Source: an uncultured Verrucomicrobiae bacterium
Lineage (GTDB): Bacteria; Verrucomicrobiota; Verrucomicrobiia; Chthoniobacterales; Chthoniobacteraceae
NCBI GenBank assembly: GCA_963769025.1
Contig: CAVYKI010000009.1
Location: forward strand, 1,088,001-1,152,000
Direction: 5' to 3'
DNA length: 64,000 nt
Shown: one piece after another, positions 31,836 through 41,753 of the stretch
How positions within the stretch are numbered: the stretch's first letter is position 1
How the letters are laid out: every line of letters starts with the position of its first letter
The notes under the pieces: model-generated
Databases searched by the model: none
Told to the model about the DNA's origin: nothing
Seen by the model: the letters and a program-made list of their open reading frames with translations, nothing else
Made by a program: the position numbers and the translations under genes

Positions 31836-34800
31836 CTACTTCGCCGGCTCGACGATCATCACGCCACGCATGACGAGGTAGTGGCCGGGGAAGGAGCAGA
31901 TGTAGGGATAGCGGCCCGGCTCCTTCGGCGCGTGGAAGCGCAGCGTGTCGGTCTCGCCCTGCTTGAGCATCTTCGTGGTGTGCATGACTTTTTCCGACTT
32001 GGGGACGAAGTCCATCTTCTCGAATGCACCGGGCAGCGTGGCCATCTGGTTTGCGGCCTGGCCGATCTCGTCCTCGGAGCCTGGCTGCACGATCATCAAG
32101 TTGTGCGGCGTGGCGTCGGGGTTTTCCAGGATGAGCTTCACCGGCGAGCCGGCCTTCACTTTGAACTCCGTGATCGTGAACATCATCCTTTCGTGGAGTG
32201 TGGACATCTGCACGATCTGCGGCTTGAGCTTGTCGAACGGATCGCGCGCGCCCGTGCTGCTCGGCTTGCGCTTCTGCGGCGTGCTGTCGGCAAGGAATTT
32301 CACGAGCTGCGGCTCGGCAGAAAATTTCGCGTCCTTCTCCCAGTGCGGCTTCAGCGAATCGAGCGCGCTGCGCAGGGCGAACGTGAGATACGTGTCCATC
32401 GGGTGCTTCAGCAAATCGAGCGCGACGCCCGCGGCCTCCCGGCTCTGGAAATAGCTCGCGGCAATCGCCGCCTCCAGTCGCACGAGCCCGTTCCCGTCAT
32501 TCGCGCATTCGCGCAGGAGGTCGAGCGCACGCGGTTCGGTCGAGGTGCAGATGAGCGATTCCTTTCCGTCCTCCCCCGTCACTTTGATCAAGTCGTGCCC
32601 CTGCCCCGCGAGCAGCGGATGCGCCCAGCGCAGTTCGCGCGTCGCCGCGGCGCGGGCCTGGGGATCCTTCGCGTGCAGCAGCTTCATGAGCAGATCCACA
32701 TTCGTGAAGCCCAGCCCGCGATACATCCACAACGCCTCGGTTTCGTGATGCAGCACACGCGCATCGCCCGCATCGAGCTTCGGCCACCACGCATCGAGCG
32801 CCTTGCGCACTTCGTCGCGCGGACGCTCGCGCAGTTCCATCTTCGCGAGGTAGCGCGTGCGCGGCTCGGGGACTTTCAAAAGTTCCAGCAGCGCGGGAAC
32901 CTGCTCGCCCGCGATCTTCGGCGCATCGAGCAGCGGCTGTCCCTTCGCGGTGATTCGCCAGATGCGGCCGCTCGTCTTGTCGCGGCGCGTGTCGCGCAGC
33001 GAATACTGCGCGTGGCCCTTCACCGGATTGTACCAGTCGCACACATACATGTCGCCGCGCGGGCCGCAGCGCACGTCGGTCGGGATGAACGACAGGTTCG
33101 TGCTCTCCCACACGTGGCCCTCCAGCTTCTCCTCGAAGTGCGTGTCCTTTTCCTCCCAGCGCATGATTTCCACGCTGTTCGTCGGCTTGTAGCGCACGCG
33201 CGCGAAGCACCCCTGCAGCTCCGCGGGAAAATGCCGGCCCGTGAAAAACTCCTGCCCGCAGGTGCCGCTGTAGGCCGGGAAGAAATTCCCCGCCGGCACG
33301 TGCTGCTGCGGGAATGGCGGGTTCAGCGCATGCACCGCGCTCGCGAAGACCGGATGACTCCCGACGTGCCAGCCCCAGTCATCGAACACGATGCCCCACG
33401 GATTCGTGCTGTAGTAGCTGCCGAATGCGAGCAGCCGCTGCGTCGCCGGGCGGAAGCGGAAGAACGTGCTGTCCTGCGCGCGCACCGGGCCGTAGGGCGT
33501 CTCGACCGACGAGTGATGAAAGATGCTCTCGCGGAAAATGAGGTCGCCGTCCGGGCTCCACGCAAAGTCGTGCAGCGCGTGATGCGAATCCTCCGTGCCG
33601 AAACCCGTCATCACGATCTGCTTCAGGTCCGCCTTTCCGTCGCCGTCCGTGTCCTTGAGAAAAACGAGGCTCGGCTGCTCCGACACATACACGCCGCCGT
33701 CGCCAAACTCGAAGGACAGCGGGATCGTCAGCCCCGTCGCGAACGTCGAGCACTTGTCCGCCTTCCCGTCGCCATCCGTGTCTTCGAGGATGATCGAGCT
33801 TGTCGCCCGGCGCGTCGCCCGGCGTCACCTGCGGATAGGTCTGCGAGCACGACACCCACAGCCGCCCGCGCGTGTCGAAGCGCATCTGGATCGGCTTCGC
33901 CAGTTCGGGAAAATCTTCCTCCGACGCAAAGCAGTTCACCTCAAAGCGCGGATCGATCCGGAACGCCTTCAGCTCGTCCGCAGGCGTGAGCCATTCGTTG
34001 ATGGGCCGGTCGCCCGTGATCGCCGGGAGCGGCGTCGTGTTCGAGTCGTCCACCTTCACGCCCCTTCCCTTCGGCGAGCGCCCACGCCGCGCGGTCGCGG
34101 TTCTCCGTCATCTCCTCCAGCTTCTTCAGCTCGCCGGGGAAATTGACCACGCCATACGGCTGCGCGCGCCCGCCGGTGATGTAGAAGCCATTCAGCGGAC
34201 GGTAATGCAGCAGCCACTGCCGGTTCTTGTCCTCCACCGTTTCCTTCAACTGCGCCGACACGTCCTTCGGCGTCTCGCTGAACAGCCCGCGGAACAGCAT
34301 CTCGCCAAACTGCCGGTAGCCCGCGTCCGTGAGATGGATGCCATTAAAAGTGAGCGCCTCCTTTTTCTCCGCCGCATTTTTCCGCGCCTCCATCGCCGCG
34401 AGAGACGGCGTGAACACATCCACAAACCCCACGCGCTCCCGCTTCGCCACGCGCTCCATCGCCTCCGTGTAGAGGCGCAGCCGCGCGTTGCTCTCGCGCC
34501 CGTCCGGCAGATTCGGATTGCCGAGATTCTCATGCGCGATCGGCGAGATGAGCACGATGGCCGGTGCCGACTTCCCATTGTAGCGATGCGCCCGCAGCCC
34601 CGCGACGAACGCCACCAGATCCGCCTCAAACTTCGCCACGCCCGCCGCACCGGCAAACGACTCATTGAACCCATACCCCGCGAGCACCACGTCCGCCTTC
34701 ACCTCCGCGAGCTGCGCGTGCATGTCCGCATATTTCTCCGGACGCGGCTGCACCGTGATCTCATCCCCCGGCCAGGCGAGCGTCCGCACCACCGGCTGCT

Positions 34801-35047
34801 GCGCCGCAAACCGCGCAAACAGCATCCCCTCAAACCACCCATGCGCCTGCATCCGCTCCATGAGCGTCCCCCCGAGAATCGCAATGCGCGCCCCCTTCTC
34901 GATGGAAAGCGGGAGCATCGTTGGAATCACCTCAGCAGCCTTCGCCGATTGCGCGGCACCCGCCGCATTCTGCGCACACACGGGCCACGAACACGCGACG
35001 GAAAGAACGGCAACGGCGGCGGGGAAAAGAAGGCGAGGGGAATTCAT
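31836..35047 (-). CDS. Large secreted PVC-type protein: SGNH-like domain + beta-propeller + HEAT repeats + azurin-like cupredoxin; two +1 frameshifts (~34062, ~33796)
   Basis: Three consecutive ORF pieces join into about 1069 aa; NGIHL, FASEEDFPELAKP, DTDGDGKAD, DWYN, PHN...YICSFPGHYLVM. Confidence 0.8.
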
Positions 35048-35176
35048 GGGAGTGCTCGGAACACCCTCACCGCCGCGACGACGGACACTCAAGGATTTTC
35101 AAATCAACTTGGTGCATTTCACAAATTCCCCGACCGGCTTACGCCCTAACAGCGAAATTGGGGTTTCGCGGCCGAC

Positions 35177-36889
35177 TCAAATCGTCAGCGCCCAAATCGA
35201 TTTGGCAACTTTCGCCATCTCGCCTTGCCGTTTTGCAATCGTCTCTTCCGTCCAGTCGCTGTATTGAGGCAGTTCCTTCGAAGTTCGATATTGGGATTGT
35301 GCATACACATGCTGTTTTTGTGCAAATGCGGCGTTGCCAGCTTGCTGCCCATTCAATCCTCGCTCCAACAATGAGTAGTTGCCGACGCGCTCGTAGCTGC
35401 GCTCATGTGCCTCGGGAGTAAACTGCTCCCACCCGACCTCACCCGGATTCTCCGGCAGGATATGCTCAACCGTGGCGGTCATCCCTTCGTCGGTGATGTC
35501 GGCACCGCTGAGTTGCTTTTCAATCTTAGCGAGAAGGTAGCGCAACCGCTTGCCAGAAGTGCTGCGGTTCCTCAGTCGAAGCGCTGAGAAATCCGCCTCG
35601 AACTCATCATCGGGAACGTAGATGGGCCGTAGAGCCTGCCGCACCGCAGCAAGTGTTGTAGCAGTGCCACGACGGACTTCCAAGGCTGCGCGGTTGTAAA
35701 TTTCTTCCAGAATGTGAGTGCTGCGTCGGCCGACGCCGTTGAATCTCACCGACAACACCGCGCAATAACGAAGAATCTCCACCAAGTCTTGCGGAGCGAT
35801 GAACACATCCTTCGCAGCAAGGACTAGCGGTGTGAACTGGGATACATTGAAAAGGTTGAGCACGCGCACCTGTTCGCGTGCGCCTTGGTAATCCAGCCAG
35901 AACTGGCTGGAAAAGTCGCTGAGTGCTTCGAACCACGCGGCATCCTTCTCTAATCGATCGAGCAGAGCAAATACGTGGTCCAGTGTCGTCACATCCCGCT
36001 TGATCGTTTTGAAGAGCTGCTTCTGTCGCACGTATTCACGATGAGAGTTCAGGTGGTGACGCAGGAAATCGGGAAAGCTGGCGATGCCCACACGAGCGGT
36101 GATGCGCGCCCACTGCCGGAGCACCGGGTCCATCTGCGACTTGCTGAGACGATCCGCCAGCGACAGCAGGTAGTTTTTCAACAGATCAGTTTCTGTCAGT
36201 TCCAAACCACGCGCGTTCAGAGTTTCAAAGACGGTGTAGGCGCTCAACTGATCCTGCACTCGCACGCTGATGAATACCAATCGCTCGGTAACAATCTCGC
36301 TGACGAAGCCCGCTACCTCCTCGCCCTTCTTCTTGCGCGAAAACTTTTCCTGAACCTTGCGTTTGAAGAACTGGAAACACTCCCAAAGAAGTCTCTCCGA
36401 ATCACGCAAACCTCGAACTCCACCCTGCGGCGGCTTGCGCTGGGCGAGGTTCAACTGAAAGAAGTCGTCGTCGTTGTTGTTGAGCTTGAGTTTTGGCGTG
36501 ATCCTCAGACTAGCCTCGTCTTTCGAGCCGACGTATCGCCCCTCCAAGAGTTCGGCTCGCTCGCGGTTTTCGGCTGGCTCGACGCCTTCTTTCGCAAGCT
36601 CATAGAGATAATCCGCGCAGGCGAGGATCAGGATGCTAAGCGTCGCCATTCGCTGCTGCCCGTAAATAATCCGGAACTGCTTCCGCTCGCCACTTTCCAG
36701 CACCAGCGCGCCCATGTAGTGATCCTCGCGGTTGGCCTCGATAGTCATCAAGTCTTCCCAGAGGTCCTCCCAATGCTCGTCCTTCCACGAGTAGTCACGT
36801 TGATACGGGGGAACACTGTAGCTCTTCCCGTTGCTGAGAAGCTCCTTCAGGTCTTCCGTATCGGTGTTGAGTAGAGTGCTGCGTGCCAT
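35177..36889 (-). CDS. DUF262 + DUF1524 (HNH) protein, GmrSD-like modification-dependent nuclease
   Basis: VPPYQRDYSW, (D>Y)GQQR, FETLNARG, VEHILP...GNYSLL...N; visibly less GC-biased codons than the flanks. Confidence 0.9.
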   Translation of the reverse strand: MARSTLLNTDTEDLKELLSNGKSYSVPPYQRDYSWKDEHWEDLWEDLMTIEANREDHYMGALVLESGERKQFRIIYGQQRMATLSILILACADYLYELAKEGVEPAENRERAELLEGRYVGSKDEASLRITPKLKLNNNDDDFFQLNLAQRKPPQGGVRGLRDSERLLWECFQFFKRKVQEKFSRKKKGEEVAGFVSEIVTERLVFISVRVQDQLSAYTVFETLNARGLELTETDLLKNYLLSLADRLSKSQMDPVLRQWARITARVGIASFPDFLRHHLNSHREYVRQKQLFKTIKRDVTTLDHVFALLDRLEKDAAWFEALSDFSSQFWLDYQGAREQVRVLNLFNVSQFTPLVLAAKDVFIAPQDLVEILRYCAVLSVRFNGVGRRSTHILEEIYNRAALEVRRGTATTLAAVRQALRPIYVPDDEFEADFSALRLRNRSTSGKRLRYLLAKIEKQLSGADITDEGMTATVEHILPENPGEVGWEQFTPEAHERSYERVGNYSLLERGLNGQQAGNAAFAQKQHVYAQSQYRTSKELPQYSDWTEETIAKRQGEMAKVAKSIWALTI

Positions 36890-36959
36890 AATTGACGGTG
36901 AGTTTACACAGTCGATCAGGAATGAACAGTCTCCGCCATACTCAGTTTTCCGCGCAGGA

Positions 36960-37178
36960 GAACCACGCCCGCAGCCCGTCCTTCTTCAGCCGCTCCGCCA
37001 CGTCGCGCATGACCGCGTTGCCGCCAGTGTCGTGCATCAAAGTGGGCGGCTTACTTCGTTTGTCCTTTTCGCTGTGGCTCGGGAAGACGTCGTAGGGGAA
37101 TTCACCGGGCATGGCTGTGGGGAATGGGATTCAGACGCTGGTTCCAACCTGCGGACGCGAGGTGCATAGCAGGGCGGG
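36960..37178 (-). repeat. Direct repeat copy A: leader + truncated TIR N-terminus (mini-ORF 37112-36942)
   Basis: About 90% identical to 38232-38451 by manual alignment (about 22 differences in 219 nt); encodes MPGEFPYDVFPSHSEKDK...AVMRDVAERLKKDGLRAWF. Confidence 0.9.
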
Positions 37179-37273
37179 CACCGGGACGGCAAGCAGTTGG
37201 GCGGGTTTTTGAAGGATGCAAATTTTCCAAAGGTGACGGTGATCTTTCCGGGGGCGCGGGTTTCTCGCTCACA

Positions 37274-37564
37274 TCAGCCGCTGAACGGGCGTCTGGCAGC
37301 ATGACGGATGTGGCCGATGAGCACGGCGGTGGAGTGGATTTGAAAGAAGACAATGTAATTGCCGAAGGGCATCATCCTCCACGTTCTGGCGTACGGATAT
37401 GCCGCGAAGCGTTCAGGGAAAGTCTCCAAAGAGGCGCAGGCGGCGAGCAGTTGGCTGACGAAACGATCGGCCACCGCACGGTCGCGAGCCTCATCAACGA
37501 GCCGGGTGTGAATCCCGTCCAAGTCCCGGAGCGTGCGCCGGGCATGGACAACCTCGCGCTTCAC
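37274..37564 (-). CDS. RelE/ParE-family toxin
   Basis: RDLDGI...L..FPE...RMMPFGNYIVFF...I.HIRHAAR; GTG overlaps the antitoxin stop. Confidence 0.85.
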   Translation of the reverse strand: MKREVVHARRTLRDLDGIHTRLVDEARDRAVADRFVSQLLAACASLETFPERFAAYPYARTWRMMPFGNYIVFFQIHSTAVLIGHIRHAARRPFSG

Positions 37565-37773
37565 GGCAGACCGAAATGCCGCCGCACGTCACCTTCCCGC
37601 AAGACATCTCCCCGGGCGAACTCCGCTTCGGCTTCAGAAAGCGCCTCGCGAATCACCGAGGTCTCTTCGCTGGAAAAACGCGACGCGAGCATTTCGGCAA
37701 TGCCGGTCTGGATCTTCATCCATTCCTCGCTGGGCATCGCGGCAATGGTGGCGAGAAGTTCCTGAGCGTTCAT
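37561..37773 (-). CDS. Putative antitoxin of the ParE-type toxin
   Basis: 70-aa acidic protein ending ALSEAEAEFARGDV...VRRHFGL; translationally coupled to the toxin. Confidence 0.75.
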   Translation of the reverse strand: MNAQELLATIAAMPSEEWMKIQTGIAEMLASRFSSEETSVIREALSEAEAEFARGDVLREGDVRRHFGLP

Positions 37774-37888
37774 GTCGCCCGCACGCTGCCACGGCGAGGC
37801 ATCGCCCTCAAGTGAGAACCCCGCACATTTTTCATTTCGAGGTTCCATGGGGAGTGACGGGGCCGGATGGAGCCGGGTTGCAACACGA

Positions 37889-37915
37889 TTGGTCGCTGAA
37901 GAAGCGCAGGCTCAC
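37889..37915 (-). pseudogene. Nine-codon stub of a probable DUF5615/PIN toxin
   Basis: GTG overlapping the DUF433 stop gives VSLRFFSDQ, resembling the xxFxxDx start of PIN toxins that partner DUF433; then unrelated sequence. Confidence 0.45.
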
Positions 37916-38133
37916 GCAGGCACGGCTTCAAATTCCGACAAGTCGCGGGCGTAATCCAGGCACGCCGCAACATCGGCCGGAGTGATGTCGGGAAATTCCC
38001 GCTGGATGGCTGCCGCATCGCGTCCTGCCGCCAGATAGCCCAGGATGAGCGCCACGGGAATGCGGGTGCCCTTGATGCACGGCTTGCCGCGGAGGATTTG
38101 CGAATCGCTAAGGATGTGTTCGCGCCAGTTCAT
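37912..38133 (-). CDS. DUF433 family antitoxin
   Basis: I.SD..IL.GKPCIKGTRIPV..IL..LAAG......EFP.IT..DV.ACL.YA. Confidence 0.9.
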   Translation of the reverse strand: MNWREHILSDSQILRGKPCIKGTRIPVALILGYLAAGRDAAAIQREFPDITPADVAACLDYARDLSEFEAVPA

Positions 38134-38231
38134 AAGGTGAATTATGTCACACGCTTGGCGGAAGGCGAGAGCTTCGCAGTCTTCGACTGGGTTCTTTCGA
38201 TGCTGCCGCCGGGCCGGATCTCCCATTCATC

Positions 38232-38451
38232 GAACCACCCCCGCAGCCCGTCCTTCCTCAGCCGCTCCGCCACGCCGCGCACGACCGGGTTGCCGCCAGT
38301 GTCGTGCATCAAAGTGGGCGGCATACTTCGTTTGTCCCTTGCGTTGTGGCTCGGGAAAGCATCGCAAGGGAATTCACCGGGCATCGCTCTGGGGAGTGGG
38401 ATTCCAACGCTGGTTCCGACCTGCGGACGCGAGGTGGCATGGCAGGGCGGG
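38232..38451 (-). repeat. Direct repeat copy B: leader + truncated TIR N-terminus (mini-ORF 38384-38142)
   Basis: Encodes MPGEFPCDAFPSHNARDK...PVVRGVAERLRKDGLRGWFDEWEIRPGGSI; 1272 nt from copy A. Confidence 0.9.
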
Positions 38452-38604
38452 AGGGAGGGAAAAGGATGAAGTTTCAAGGATGAGCCGGAAACTTTGGCTT
38501 CCGCGACGGGCAACCTTTTAGTCGAACGCGGTCGCAGACCGGATTTTCCATCGTTTGATGCGGTTTTTGCTTCAAAAAAGGCTCTTTTTCAAGGTTGCGA
38601 GGTG

Positions 38605-39087
38605 ATTCTCCGACGCAAGAAAACCATTCTCCGACGCAAGAAAACCATTCTCCGACGCAAGAAAACCATTCTCCGACGCAAGAAAACCATTCTCCGACGC
38701 AAGAAAACCATTCTCCGACGCAAGAAAACCATTCTCCGACGCAAGAAAACCATTCTCCGACGCAAGAAAACCATTCTCCGACGCAAGAGAACCATTCTCC
38801 GACGCAAGAGAACCATTCTCCGACGCAAGAGAACCATTCTCCGACGCAAGAGAACCATTCTCCGACGCAAGAGAACCATTCTCCGACGCAAGAGAACCAT
38901 TCTCCGACGCAAGAGAACCATTCTCCGACGCAAGAGAACCATTCTCCGACGCAAGAGAACCATTCTCCGACGCAAGAAAACCATTCTCCGACGCAAGAGA
39001 ACCGCTCCCCGACGCAAGTGAACCGTTCTCCGACGCAAGAGAACCATTCTCCGACGCAAGAGAACGATCCTCCGCCGGAAGAGAAGC
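38605..39087. repeat. 21-bp tandem array, 23 units, ATTCTCCGACGCAAGA(A/G)AACC
   Basis: 8 A-variant, 9 G-variant, 1 A, 1 G, then 4 variably degenerate units; no spacers. Confidence 0.98.
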
Positions 39088-39171
39088 GAAGGCGTCCAGC
39101 ATCATCTCCAGAAGGGCAGGCGGTCCGGTTTCCCCTTCCATCATGCAGTCCGCGCGCTAGCGTGCGCGGCT

Positions 39172-39882
39172 GTGCCAGTCTTCTCCGGCATTTTCCGCAA
39201 TCTAGTCTTCAAGCCGATCTTGCGGCCGGTTTTTCGCGTGCTCACCGGGGTGCTGGCCATCCCGGTGTTTCGGTTTGTGATGCGGCGTTTCTTTCACCGG
39301 AAAAAGCTCACGAAGGAAATGGAGCGGGACCTGGAGATGTGGTTCCGGGGCGCGGTGATCCTGCTCGCGGCGACGGCGAATCTGGAGGATTTTCTCTTCG
39401 GCTGGCTGCCCTGGCACAAGAGCGAGGAGCCGTGGCTGACCATGCTGCTGCGCCTGCTGCTGGCCGTCGGGGTCATCGAGCACATGCCCGACCAGGAGGT
39501 GTTTGGCATCCTGCATCGCGGGCCGCCACAGGTGAAGCTGACCAGCCGCAGCGGGTGGAAGGAAGCCTGGCGGCGGCGGCGGGAATTCCTGCGCGGCCTC
39601 GTGGTCCTCCACCTGAAGCGCTCCTCGCCGGTGTTTGTCATCATGACGGTGATCTTCGGAAACCAGCCGGGCACGCGCGAGTTCATCGTCGGATGGATCT
39701 TCTACGGCCTCGCGGTCGCGCAGTACTTGATCATCGGGCTGGTGACCGAGGGCGACCGGCTCCGGGGCTTGCTGGCGGAGTTCGACCGCAGTGCGGAGGC
39801 GCTCCGGAAGGAGATCGCGGCGAAGGAACCTGCTTCCGCAACCCCGGCGAATGACGGGACGACACCGATCTCGCCCCCGTAG
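39172..39882 (+). CDS. Hypothetical membrane protein
   Basis: 236-aa ORF with several hydrophobic helices and host-like codon usage. Confidence 0.75.
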   Translation: MPVFSGIFRNLVFKPILRPVFRVLTGVLAIPVFRFVMRRFFHRKKLTKEMERDLEMWFRGAVILLAATANLEDFLFGWLPWHKSEEPWLTMLLRLLLAVGVIEHMPDQEVFGILHRGPPQVKLTSRSGWKEAWRRRREFLRGLVVLHLKRSSPVFVIMTVIFGNQPGTREFIVGWIFYGLAVAQYLIIGLVTEGDRLRGLLAEFDRSAEALRKEIAAKEPASATPANDGTTPISPP

Positions 39883-39983
39883 CGACGACCGCCAGACTGT
39901 GAATGGGCTGCCCCGCTACACGCCGCCAGCCGAGGGCGGGTAATCGGCATTTGCCTCGCGACGGGGAAGTCGCGCGCGGCTTC

Positions 39984-41753
39984 TCAGGCGCATTGAGTCG
40001 TCGGAATGGCGAAGGCGCTGCCTTGCGATAGGATCGCTTTGTGAAGGACGGTCAGGAGCGTGCCCGTGCTGAAGGGCTTGTTGAGCATCTCGCTCACTTT
40101 GAGTGACTGCAATTCCTCGGCGCGCGCTTCATCCGCATACCCGGTCGAAGCAATCACGGAGACCGCCGGATTCATGCGCTTCAAAAGACGGCAGAGGGTC
40201 ACGCCATCCACCAGTGGCATCATGATGTCGGTGAGGACGACGCGGATTTCTGCGCCGTGCTGGGCATAGATGGATACCGCCTCGGTGCCATCCGCCGCCG
40301 CCATGGTGCTGTAGCCGTATCGGGTGAGCACGGATTCGGTCGTGGTGCGGATGTCGTATTCGTCGTCCACCACGAGGATCAGTTCGCCATGTCCGACCGG
40401 GAACGGCGTTTCGACGTCCTCAAGCATCGGACAGGCGCCTCCGGACGCGACCGGCAGCCAGAATTCGAAGGTGGTGCCCCGGCCCTGTTCGCTCCGCAAG
40501 TTCAGCACGCCGTCGTGGCTTTTCACGATGCCGCTGGCAGTGGAGAGGCCGAGGCCGGTGCCCTTGCCCAGCGGTTTGGTCGTAAAAAATGGATCGAAGA
40601 TTTTGGCGATGATCTCGCGGGGGATGCCCATGCCGCTGTCGGCGACCCTGAATACGACGTACCGTCCGGGTTGAACCCCCGGCGTCATGCACGCAGATGC
40701 CGCGTCGAACTCAACATTGTCGGCGCTGAGGCGCAGCGTGCCGCCGTCGGGCATGGCGTCGCGGGCGTTCACGCAGAGATTCATGAGCACTTGATGGAGT
40801 TGCGTGGCGTCGCCGTTCACGCAGAACAGGTTCTTGGCAATGTCGCACTGGATGCGAACGTTTCGCGGGAAGGTACCCGAGATGACGTTGACGATTTCGT
40901 GGAGCAGATGGCTGGGCTCGAGACGCGAACGCGCGCCCTCCGCACCGCGGGCAAAGGTGAGCACCTGCTTGACCAACACGGCGGCACGCTGCGCGGAATT
41001 TTCGATCATCGCGACCAGTCCCCTCGATTCCTCGGCGATGTCCACATTCAGCAATCCCGCGGACATGAGGATCGGCGAGAGCATGTTGTTCAAGTCATGC
41101 GCGATACCGCTGGCGAGGGTGCCAATGCTCTCGAGACGCTGGGCGCGCAGAAGGTGGTCCTCGGCCTGCTTGCGCTGTTCCATCTCGGCGAGGAGCCGCT
41201 TGTTCATTTCGCGGAGATCGCGGGTGCGCTCCTCGACGACCCGCTCCGTTTCCGCAAGGCGATCGCGGGCCTCGTGGGTCAGCCTCCATTTTTCGCAGAG
41301 CGCGCAGGCGAGTTGCAGCGCCTCGATGGCCGCGAATGGCTTTTTGAGCACCAGCAACCGGTCGCGGTTACCGAGGCGGTCCACCATTTCCTGCCACGAA
41401 TAGTCCGAGTAGGCGGTGCACATGACCACCTGCAGCTCCGGGCAAAGCTGCCAGAGGCGCTCCGCAGTCTCGATGCCATCCGCGCCGGGAGGCATCCGCA
41501 CGTCCACAAACGCCATCGCAAACGGACGCCCCTCCTCGATCGCCAGGCGAAGCGCGACCACGCCTTCATCCCCCTGATAGGCCGAGGTGAGTTCGAAAGT
41601 CGGCTGCCCCGGGGATGGCACGGGCTTGCCGAAGAACTCCGCCTCCGCCTGGTCGCTCGCGTCATTTACGGGGCAGAGGATCTTGCGAAAATCCTCATGG
41701 ATCGCGCGGTTGTCATCGATGACGAGGATGCGGTGGTTGGAGTGCGTGCTCAT
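39984..41753 (-). CDS. Hybrid kinase REC-HisKA-HATPase-REC
   Basis: ILVIDDN...DVRMPPG; IAHDLNN; NLCVNARDAM; GKGTGLGL; second receiver. Confidence 0.93.
   Translation of the reverse strand: MSTHSNHRILVIDDNRAIHEDFRKILCPVNDASDQAEAEFFGKPVPSPGQPTFELTSAYQGDEGVVALRLAIEEGRPFAMAFVDVRMPPGADGIETAERLWQLCPELQVVMCTAYSDYSWQEMVDRLGNRDRLLVLKKPFAAIEALQLACALCEKWRLTHEARDRLAETERVVEERTRDLREMNKRLLAEMEQRKQAEDHLLRAQRLESIGTLASGIAHDLNNMLSPILMSAGLLNVDIAEESRGLVAMIENSAQRAAVLVKQVLTFARGAEGARSRLEPSHLLHEIVNVISGTFPRNVRIQCDIAKNLFCVNGDATQLHQVLMNLCVNARDAMPDGGTLRLSADNVEFDAASACMTPGVQPGRYVVFRVADSGMGIPREIIAKIFDPFFTTKPLGKGTGLGLSTASGIVKSHDGVLNLRSEQGRGTTFEFWLPVASGGACPMLEDVETPFPVGHGELILVVDDEYDIRTTTESVLTRYGYSTMAAADGTEAVSIYAQHGAEIRVVLTDIMMPLVDGVTLCRLLKRMNPAVSVIASTGYADEARAEELQSLKVSEMLNKPFSTGTLLTVLHKAILSQGSAFAIPTTQCA

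Follow-up and report, generated by a model that had tools for sequence, protein, structure and literature searches.

We analyzed a 64,000-nt stretch (hereafter the window; C9:1088001-1152000) of G000, a metagenome-assembled genome of a member of the Chthoniobacteraceae that comprises 13 contigs and is 83% complete. The window contains two direct repeats, copies A and B, each of which begins like a gene for a TIR-domain protein, breaks off within the TIR domain and is followed by a different gene. We consider it probable that such stubs are scars left by resident TIR genes at variable defense hotspots and at the same time homology anchors, and that they are made by illegitimate recombination and spread by homologous recombination.

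According to the proposed mechanism, A and B would each be the dead 5' remnant of a different gene of a single TIR family and would still have the promoter-proximal leader. The family would sit at the upstream edge of small strain-variable defense hotspots in this Chthoniobacteraceae genus. The 3' part of a resident TIR gene would be lost and another gene would come in behind the remaining stub, a GmrSD/HEC-06 gene in the case of A and a DUF433-DUF5615 pair in the case of B. The stub-to-cargo joints would arise by illegitimate recombination without a site-specific enzyme, and the stub-plus-cargo block would then move between strains and loci by homologous recombination anchored in the conserved module and in the core flank. 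A and B would not be derived from each other; judging from the sequences, their standing side by side would be a by-product of a rearrangement specific to this lineage. What the sequences themselves show is where the genes are truncated, where the junctions lie, which alternative occupants follow, and how similar the copies are and how far their homology reaches; the order of these events and the role of homologous recombination are what we infer.

Two truncated TIR gene starts in the window

BLAST aligns positions 36960-37178 (A) with 38232-38451 (B) as direct repeats on the minus strand, with 90.0% identity over 220 nt and a spacing of 1272 nt. A repeat finder returns the pair as two 205-nt copies at 36960 and 38232, which are 90% identical and have the same spacing. 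Counted from the ATGs at 37112 (A) and 38384 (B), the repeat covers -66 to +152, and chance is excluded as the source of the match. Each copy consists of a 66-67-nt leader, an ATG and TIR codons that end at differing points:

Copy A, 36960..37246, minus strand: upstream segment 37179-37246, leader 37113-37178, ATG at 37112, 51 TIR codons ending at 36960
Copy B, 38169..38458, minus strand: leader 38385-38458, ATG at 38384, 72 TIR codons, non-homologous junction at 38169

An earlier reading made from this DNA alone (the sequence-only reading) had described ~220-bp, ~90% identical direct repeats 1272 nt apart, each with a leader, an ATG and a TIR start truncated at its own break point; the searches agree with it on all these features.

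The stub frame of copy A runs to a stop codon at 36942. Its upstream segment is common to those copies in relatives that follow the queuine tRNA-ribosyltransferase gene tgt (tgt-linked copies). BLAST extends copy A over -134 to +142 against G042:C117 (90.3% identity) and over -135 to +2507 against metagenome contigs L052 and L061 (95.4-95.5%); here and below, G, C and L numbers designate genomes, contigs and loci. Copy B is matched by G012:C89 and G045:C283 over -74 to +215. It carries an 18-nt extra segment, and its key motif has decayed, the translation reading CDAFPSH in place of YDVFLSH. Both stubs contain a 42-nt in-frame insert, at 37017-37058 in A and at 38289-38330 in B.

The TIR identity of the copies comes mainly from DNA: the same genome has an intact TIR-WD40 paralogue to which they are 95-96% identical over 56-93 nt. 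Pfam TIR_2 finds copy B with E 6.3e-5 and 23.9 bits, below the 28-bit cut-off, over profile positions 10-43 of 122, and copy A has no Pfam match at E <= 0.01. Intact relatives score E 2.7e-22 (L055) and E 3e-28 (the own-genome paralogue). A complete TIR_2 domain (PF13676) is present in neither copy; both are fragments.

Searched with copy A, the genome yields A, B and one more place, C9:~1245935. This is the intact TIR-WD40 gene, an 862-aa open frame with neither the leader nor the 42-nt insert. TIR_2 itself matches four places of the genome, three of them over the cut-off. Since the own-genome search finds no further truncated copy, there is no array of such repeats beyond A and B. The region of the intact paralogue (C9:~1243400-1247400; L003, L042) encodes a TIR-WD40 protein that includes a P-loop/GTPase-like stretch. 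Upstream of the gene are a 42-nt array, a LuxR-type open reading frame (ORF) and a divergent 592-aa ORF, which is full of 42-nt repeats and begins with the dispersed motif described below.

The module and its joints in relatives

Each related species was represented by a single genome, and the loci were inspected over ±1.5 to 3.5 kb. Matches to the TIR start (E <= 1e-8) occur in 10 of the 30 genus genomes. The 20 matches correspond to 17 TIR or leader loci, plus G005:C179, which holds only the 42-nt motif. An intact multi-domain gene was observed within ±1.5 kb at one of the 17 loci, namely at the own-genome paralogue. The rest end inside the TIR domain, and in genomes other than G000 the following genes stand behind the stub:

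G042:C76: AAA_13
G012:C89: HNH_2
G012:C116: reverse transcriptase
G005:C184: RES-domain protein
G010:C731: AccI-like nuclease
G042:C117: PSD1 tail fused in frame
G019:C38, G012:C120, G016:C218: ORFs without a family
G016:C212, G015:C36: genes on the opposite strand

The sequence-only reading had suggested tabulating the genes behind every copy of the repeat in this genome and in its relatives. In relatives the module indeed heads differing genes; the own genome offers nothing beyond A, B and one leaderless paralogue. A local duplication of a decayed TIR gene with invariant neighbors, the outcome that the sequence-only reading had named against itself, was not found.

The 67-nt leader is present in nine of the genus copies. 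It starts sharply at GCCCGCCCTGCYATGCACC, and upstream of this point the copies fall into unrelated groups. A scan of the genome contigs with a 36-nt leader pattern gave three records. A similar scan of metagenome contigs, which are short, with a 23-nt leader pattern gave 14 loci, 12 of them real; L054 and L063 are chance matches in unrelated DNA and were dropped.

The module of copy A (-135 to ~+150) lies directly after tgt at nine of the 12 metagenome loci and at G042:C117. Behind it, five alternative contents were observed at this site:

L055: intact 276-aa TIR gene (TIR_2 E 2.7e-22), 185-aa ORF, PDC-S29/EcsC-like candidate gene
L052, L061: GmrSD gene, then GDSL gene; 95.4-95.5% identity with the window across 2643 nt (-135 to +2507)
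L056: type II restriction-modification (R-M) pair on the opposite strand
L051: IS200-type Y1 transposase gene
L050, L053, L060, L062, G042:C117 and L058 (upstream part beyond the contig end): 3' tail of a PSD1/DUF1553 gene fused in frame

The variable content is thus TIR plus PDC-S29, GmrSD/HEC-06, type II R-M, an IS200 transposase or nearly nothing, i.e., it is enriched in defense genes. On the right side, homology resumes ~60 nt upstream of the GDSL ATG in four occupant types. In relatives the core flanks are tgt upstream and GDSL or PSD1-HEAT downstream; the window genome lacks tgt on the left. We picture the tgt site as a small strain-variable defense hotspot whose original occupant was a TIR gene, with the front end of that gene left as a scar. 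On one further metagenome contig, L059, receiver and Roc GTPase domains come after the TIR start but in a different frame.

The order in relatives is tgt, TIR site, PSD1-HEAT, GDSL. In G000 these parts are spread over three contigs: tgt is on C6 (C6:406681-407874) beside a glycyl-tRNA synthetase-like gene, C2 (C2:19884-22904) has an intact PSD1 gene together with HEAT, and GDSL is on C9. The hotspot region therefore seems to have been broken up by rearrangements in the lineage of G000. In the window, the module of copy A abuts ParE via a non-homologous joint, and the tgt-linked homology begins 25 nt past the ParE stop codon, at -135.

Joint positions were measured against the intact TIR gene of L055. 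There are ~17 junction positions, from -10 to +404. The TIR homology ends at -10, +38, +147/152 (PSD1), +149 (R-M), +152 (GmrSD, including copy A), +161/166 (IS200), +185 (copy B), +267, +278, +305, +315 (two loci, 1 nt apart), +345, +355/356 and +385 to +404. The sequences past the joints of these ~17 types have no common motif (no attC-finding program was run), and the PSD1 joint has an 8-nt microhomology, GTGTTCGA. Heterogeneous joints without a motif, together with microhomology, fit illegitimate recombination and not a site-specific enzyme. That breakpoints cluster between +147 and +166 might indicate site specificity; set beside the full range of ~17 types, however, the clustering is not compelling (no formal test was made).

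Some joints recur in different surroundings. L052 and L061 have tgt in front of the A-GmrSD joint, and the window has ParE there; the IS200-type joint follows tgt in L051 and a 21-nt array in G012:C108. L051 and G012:C108 are homologous from -82 to +988 (81.6% over 1108 nt) and differ in the N-terminus and in the presence of the 42-nt insert. The same joints with different upstream DNA suggest that stub and cargo move as blocks, and the mosaic TIR family points to homologous exchange within the module.

The 42-nt insert (KRSKPPTLMHDTGGN) is near-invariant in the copies of G042 and G016 and in most metagenome copies; it is present in 11 of the 12 leader-bearing metagenome copies (all except L057) and is thus a family trait. 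The insert resembles a ~45-nt dispersed motif, AAACGRAGTAAGCCGCCCACT-N11-13-CACTGGCGGCAA, whose GCCGCC/GGCGGC stem is conserved and whose loop varies. Five more copies of the motif are found in G000 (C12:195178, C9:1246559, C3:838410, C6:322542 and C6:428836), one of which lies 0.6 kb upstream of the intact TIR-WD40 gene. The 42-nt element may be similar to repetitive extragenic palindromic (REP) elements; Rfam gives no match for it.

Five loci, namely the window and G012:C89, C116, C108 and C120 (L021, L040, L043, L044), have tandem arrays with a period of 21 nt at a distance of 220-310 nt upstream of the TIR ATG; the units differ between the loci. A 117-nt segment downstream of the cargo in three G012 loci was considered as a second cassette border. 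It is also found beside the IS200-type gene of L051, with one weak copy in G000, and is therefore treated as a dispersed repeat of insertion sequence (IS) or REP type. A second case of the window's layout was observed at G005:C184 (L034), with a decayed TIR fragment, an AbrB-like ORF, a PIN (VapC-like) gene, a 104-aa TIR stub and the RES-domain gene.

Genes around copies A and B

All the genes concerned are on the minus strand. The choice of ORFs in this G+C-rich DNA was heuristic.

38605..39085, minus strand: 21-nt tandem array of ~23 copies (Tandem Repeats Finder: period 21, 22.9 copies, 96% matches; repeat families D1 and D2 agree)
37912..38133, minus strand: DUF433 gene, antitoxin-like partner of DUF5615, intact (Pfam DUF433 E 2.4e-21)
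37832..37915, minus strand: 27-codon stub of a DUF5615 (PIN-like) toxin gene (9/15 residues match the DUF5615 ORF of G023, E 0.002)
37561..37773, minus strand: antitoxin gene of the ParE pair, overlapping the ParE start by 4 nt
37274..37564, minus strand: ParE-type toxin gene (Pfam ParE_toxin E 5.5e-12)
35177..36889, minus strand: GmrSD-family nuclease gene of HEC-06 type, 570 aa (Pfam GmrSD_N E 1.1e-34, GmrSD_C E 7e-27)
33941..35092, minus strand: GDSL-lipase part of a core gene that forms the conserved right flank of the variable region (Pfam Lipase_GDSL_2)

The GmrSD gene starts 70 nt past the end of copy A. Its product has both DUF262 (GmrSD_N) and DUF1524 (GmrSD_C), together with the nucleotide-hydrolysis and His-Me nuclease motifs, as is characteristic of GmrSD/HEC-06, and PADLOC assigns it to HEC-06 with E 1.2e-197 over positions 1-566 of 569. 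The G+C content of this stretch is 54-57%, versus 63-67% in the flanks. HEC-06 is described as a GmrSD-like single-gene system shown to defend against phages, with the motifs DGQQR and EHICP (bioRxiv 10.1101/2024.01.29.577857). The window gene appears to be of this kind, since it matches the PADLOC model end to end and has GQQR and EH..P nuclease motifs; it differs from the published motifs in that its translation reads YGQQR and EHILP.

Behind copy B, the DUF433 gene starts 36 nt past the end of the copy, and its stop codon is overlapped by the GTG of the DUF5615 stub. The reference for the stub is G023, in which DUF433 is followed by a DUF5615 ORF (Pfam DUF5615 E 9.2e-11). In the window the two partners are not both intact: DUF5615 is down to ~13 recognizable codons just upstream of the ParDE cassette. 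This cassette, a ParE toxin gene with an overlapping upstream antitoxin gene, is a type II toxin-antitoxin (TA) system of the ParDE kind; the antitoxin matched no Pfam family. The cassette is compact, extending from ~50 nt upstream of the antitoxin (window 37561-37822) to the ParE stop codon. Antitoxin and ParE together are 84% identical over 550 nt to a cassette in G012:C89 (L021 3198-3750), which there adjoins dinB. The same 84% between two species compares with 70-79% for core genes; the homology stops exactly at the ParE stop codon, and the ParE reading frame of G012 is broken after 61 codons. The cargo named in the sequence-only reading, a GmrSD-like nuclease behind A and DUF433, a toxin stub and a ParE-type TA pair behind B, was recovered by Pfam and PADLOC.

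Upstream of copy B, the 21-nt array occupies the positions 221-701 nt before the ATG; copy A has no such array. Homologues of the ORF 39172-39882 have no array or TIR beside them in the four loci read (~1.5 kb each side). On the other side, the GDSL gene is 85-87% identical in G004 and G014. In the window the GDSL-lipase ORF and a DUF7133/HEAT/cupredoxin ORF (31836-33692) are separate; in G004 they form one ORF of >893 aa. The split may be a frameshift, a pseudogene or an assembly error. In G004, the only one of the closest genus members opened at this place, a HEAT gene adjoins the GDSL gene and no TIR stub was seen.

Pfam finds no integrase, transposase or recombinase family in the ORFs scanned between 21.7 and 54.7 kb (~13 kb on each side; five of the larger ORFs have zero Pfam matches, and no genome-wide IntI search was made), in line with the statement of the sequence-only reading that none is adjacent. 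An Rfam search of 34500-40000 at E <= 1 returned zero families.

Competing explanations and known parallels

Several observations weigh against a simple history of resident genes that were replaced and left as scars. Among seven tgt-linked copies, the segment from -213 to +95 (spacer, leader, first part of the stub and insert) consists of parts that are 96.3-97.6% identical, versus 91.8% at the third codon positions of the adjacent tgt. Within the stub, the identity is 96.4% at third codon positions versus 95.2% at first and second positions, i.e., there is no protein-level constraint. A dead protein whose DNA is kept better than nearby neutral sites suggests a role at the DNA or RNA level or a recent exchange; plain neutral scars would not give such conservation. 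G012 has four copies of a unit composed of 21-nt array, spacer, leader and TIR start. Over -504 to +2 these copies are 82-89% identical, and no two have the same cargo; none is intact, and an origin as scars needs four independent truncations in one genome. In the window as well as in G012:C89, a leader-TIR module has the ParDE cassette upstream of it. At the tgt site, the breakpoints of all four replacement types fall into a 20-nt interval (+147 to +166). The first gene behind the stub is co-oriented with it in ~12 of ~16 loci and usually starts 5-125 nt past the joint (ORF lists were read by eye). Finally, G000 is an incomplete bin, and both joints that bring A and B together are confirmed only by short contigs of related organisms, 91-96% identical.

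Part of this is accommodated if the stubs are retained as a useful promoter and 5' untranslated region that expresses the incoming defense gene, which would make the module a landing pad that works without a recombinase. We regard this as possible, though we hold it only tentatively. It overlaps and is compatible with the origin of the stubs as scars and differs from it only in the claim of function and selection. Conservation of -213 to +95 that is 2-3 times better than that of tgt synonymous sites, in a stub without codon-position constraint, argues for it, as does the mostly co-oriented cargo a short way past the joint. At G012:C116 only ~38 nt of TIR are kept before the reverse transcriptase gene, and at G042:C76 (L038) the TIR gene is cut right after an internal AAGGAG, which stands 8 nt before the AAA_13 ATG, in the position of a ribosome-binding site. 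In at least six different upstream contexts, the homology has its left edge between -67 and -82, shortly before a conserved YATRCA hexamer, which is preceded at 17-18 nt by TTGnnn in six of nine copies.

However, the hexamers TTGCCG-N18-TATGCA, which the sequence-only reading regarded as promoter-like, are present upstream of copy A but are not called by a consensus promoter scan; the scan gives one site in 35000-39300, elsewhere, versus 1.1 expected from shuffles. RNAalifold applied to nine leaders found none of 14 predicted pairs to be compensatory (covariation term 0.04). The next gene is on the opposite strand in L056, G016:C212 and G015:C36. When A is compared with B, the leader, with 8 differences in 68 nt, shows no stronger conservation than the remainder of the repeat, and the strong conservation among tgt-linked copies could stem from recent recombination among strains.

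We are more doubtful about an extended version, in which the leader and TIR start, together with the 21-nt arrays and the conserved 42-nt element, would be a maintained landing pad, a regulated promoter and 5' region with which the genus captures and expresses defense genes via homology-anchored recombination and with no dedicated recombinase. By analogy, such a pad would be a functional parallel of the Pc/attI platform of integrons.

A simple local tandem duplication of one decayed TIR fragment with subsequent drift is improbable. The copies are on the same strand, 1272 nt apart, and have in common the 42-nt insert and an L-to-P change in FLSH, as a duplication would give; but the insert is a family trait, and the TA genes behind B are unrelated to the GmrSD gene behind A. 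Moreover, A shares -134 to -67 with the tgt-linked copies and B does not, and B contains the 18-nt segment and 60 more nt of TIR, which are absent from A and common to G012:C89, G045:C283, G019:C38 and G005:C184. A, B and G042:C117 are equidistant at ~10% (A-B 90.0%, A-G042:C117 90.3% and B-G042:C117 90.6% identity). Since A and B are as far from copies of other genomes as from each other and have differing upstream DNA, they did not arise by local duplication.

Integrons comprise the integrase IntI, the attI and attC sites and the Pc promoter, and their chromosomal arrays include TA cassettes. The central proposal of the sequence-only reading was of this sort: the TIR start would be a dedicated, portable recombination handle, and recombination between A and B would excise the TA block as a circle. 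What stands of it is that the same module precedes differing cargo. The two direct repeats do bracket the TA block and both head cargo on the same strand; the module heads many cargo types in relatives, four in G012 alone. As in integrons, packed same-strand genes follow a common upstream region, a TA cassette, typical cargo of integrons, is found among defense genes, and a repeat stands between the blocks. Integrons have also been described as stores of defense genes (bioRxiv 10.1101/2024.07.02.601686).

The dedicated mechanism is what fails, and we consider an integron-like system very improbable. Neither IntI nor another recombinase family was found in the ORFs scanned at 21.7-54.7 kb, the repeat is a gene fragment, the joints fall at ~17 positions without a fixed site or a common motif, and the own genome has two stubs only. 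A and B are 10% diverged and their longest identical run is ~34 nt, which speaks against a recent exchange between them. The strains with the A-GmrSD joint and no TA block have tgt upstream and not the DNA found upstream of B, hence they are not products of recombination between A and B. Apparent A/B joints in read contigs (38278>37095, 38289>37060, a 44-nt skip) were considered as such products and rejected: they come from TIR genes of relatives without the 42-nt insert, which fit partly A and partly B. These contigs, from four runs, all belong to related organisms. Neither a deletion between A and B nor a circular form was seen, in sequencing runs of which the best matched a 0.10 share of the region's words.

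Least likely of all is that the order of A and B is an artefact of assembly: G000 is a 13-contig, 83%-complete bin with tgt, PSD1-HEAT and GDSL on three contigs, unlike relatives, and no sequencing run matched half or more of the region's words (best share 0.10), but the joints lie outside the repeat, a 220-nt, 90% repeat is unlikely to mislead an assembler that yields megabase contigs, and contigs of related organisms bridge the joints from ParE to A (201 nt, run X2, 37153-37351) and from B to DUF433 (513 nt, run X6, 37888-38236), which speaks against an artefact.

Taken as scars and anchors at hotspots, the stubs have relatives among known arrangements. Rhs and contact-dependent inhibition (CDI) polymorphic toxin loci have displaced "orphan" modules, in which the 3' end of the conserved core is repeated with an in-frame toxin tip and an immunity gene. 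There, too, a fragment of a conserved gene is repeated before variable modules as a by-product of replacement and a possible homology handle; in contrast to those loci, what is repeated here is the beginning (5' end) of a TIR gene, and each cargo gene is independent and has a start codon of its own. Homology-facilitated illegitimate recombination, with one homologous anchor and a microhomology joint, occurs in naturally transformable bacteria. By analogy, it would give a stub-plus-foreign-gene structure like the one described here.

The closest known kind is the core defense hotspot. Variable defense content between core genes, in some cases without recognizable mobile elements, is described for cDHS1/2 of Pseudomonas aeruginosa (PMC10250203) and for Escherichia coli (PMC10121019), and homologous recombination in the flanks is proposed there as a route of hotspot transfer (PMC10250203, PMC10121019). 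The site studied here is similar in being bounded by tgt on the left and by PSD1-HEAT or GDSL on the right, with defense genes that vary by strain and mostly come without mobile-element genes. It differs in its very small size (0.3-2.5 kb) and in its left border, where the retained 5' TIR stub of an ex-occupant takes the place of an intact core gene; stubs of this family also precede cargo at other loci, and the tgt flank is lost in the window genome. Compared with the cited hotspots, a border made of the ex-occupant's 5' stub, with the same stub family heading about a dozen genes, appears to be a new detail (no literature search was aimed at TIR stubs as borders).

How the content of defense hotspots is exchanged without mobile-element genes is named as an open question in PMC10250203. 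The present case shows a single site in at least five states whose joints are exactly placed; what these states have in common is a border formed by the surviving front end of the ex-occupant. If the module is a working promoter or a preferred recombination anchor, it would provide a simple, enzyme-free route for swapping bacterial immune genes. If it is not functional, it would still be a clear record of gene replacement by illegitimate recombination.

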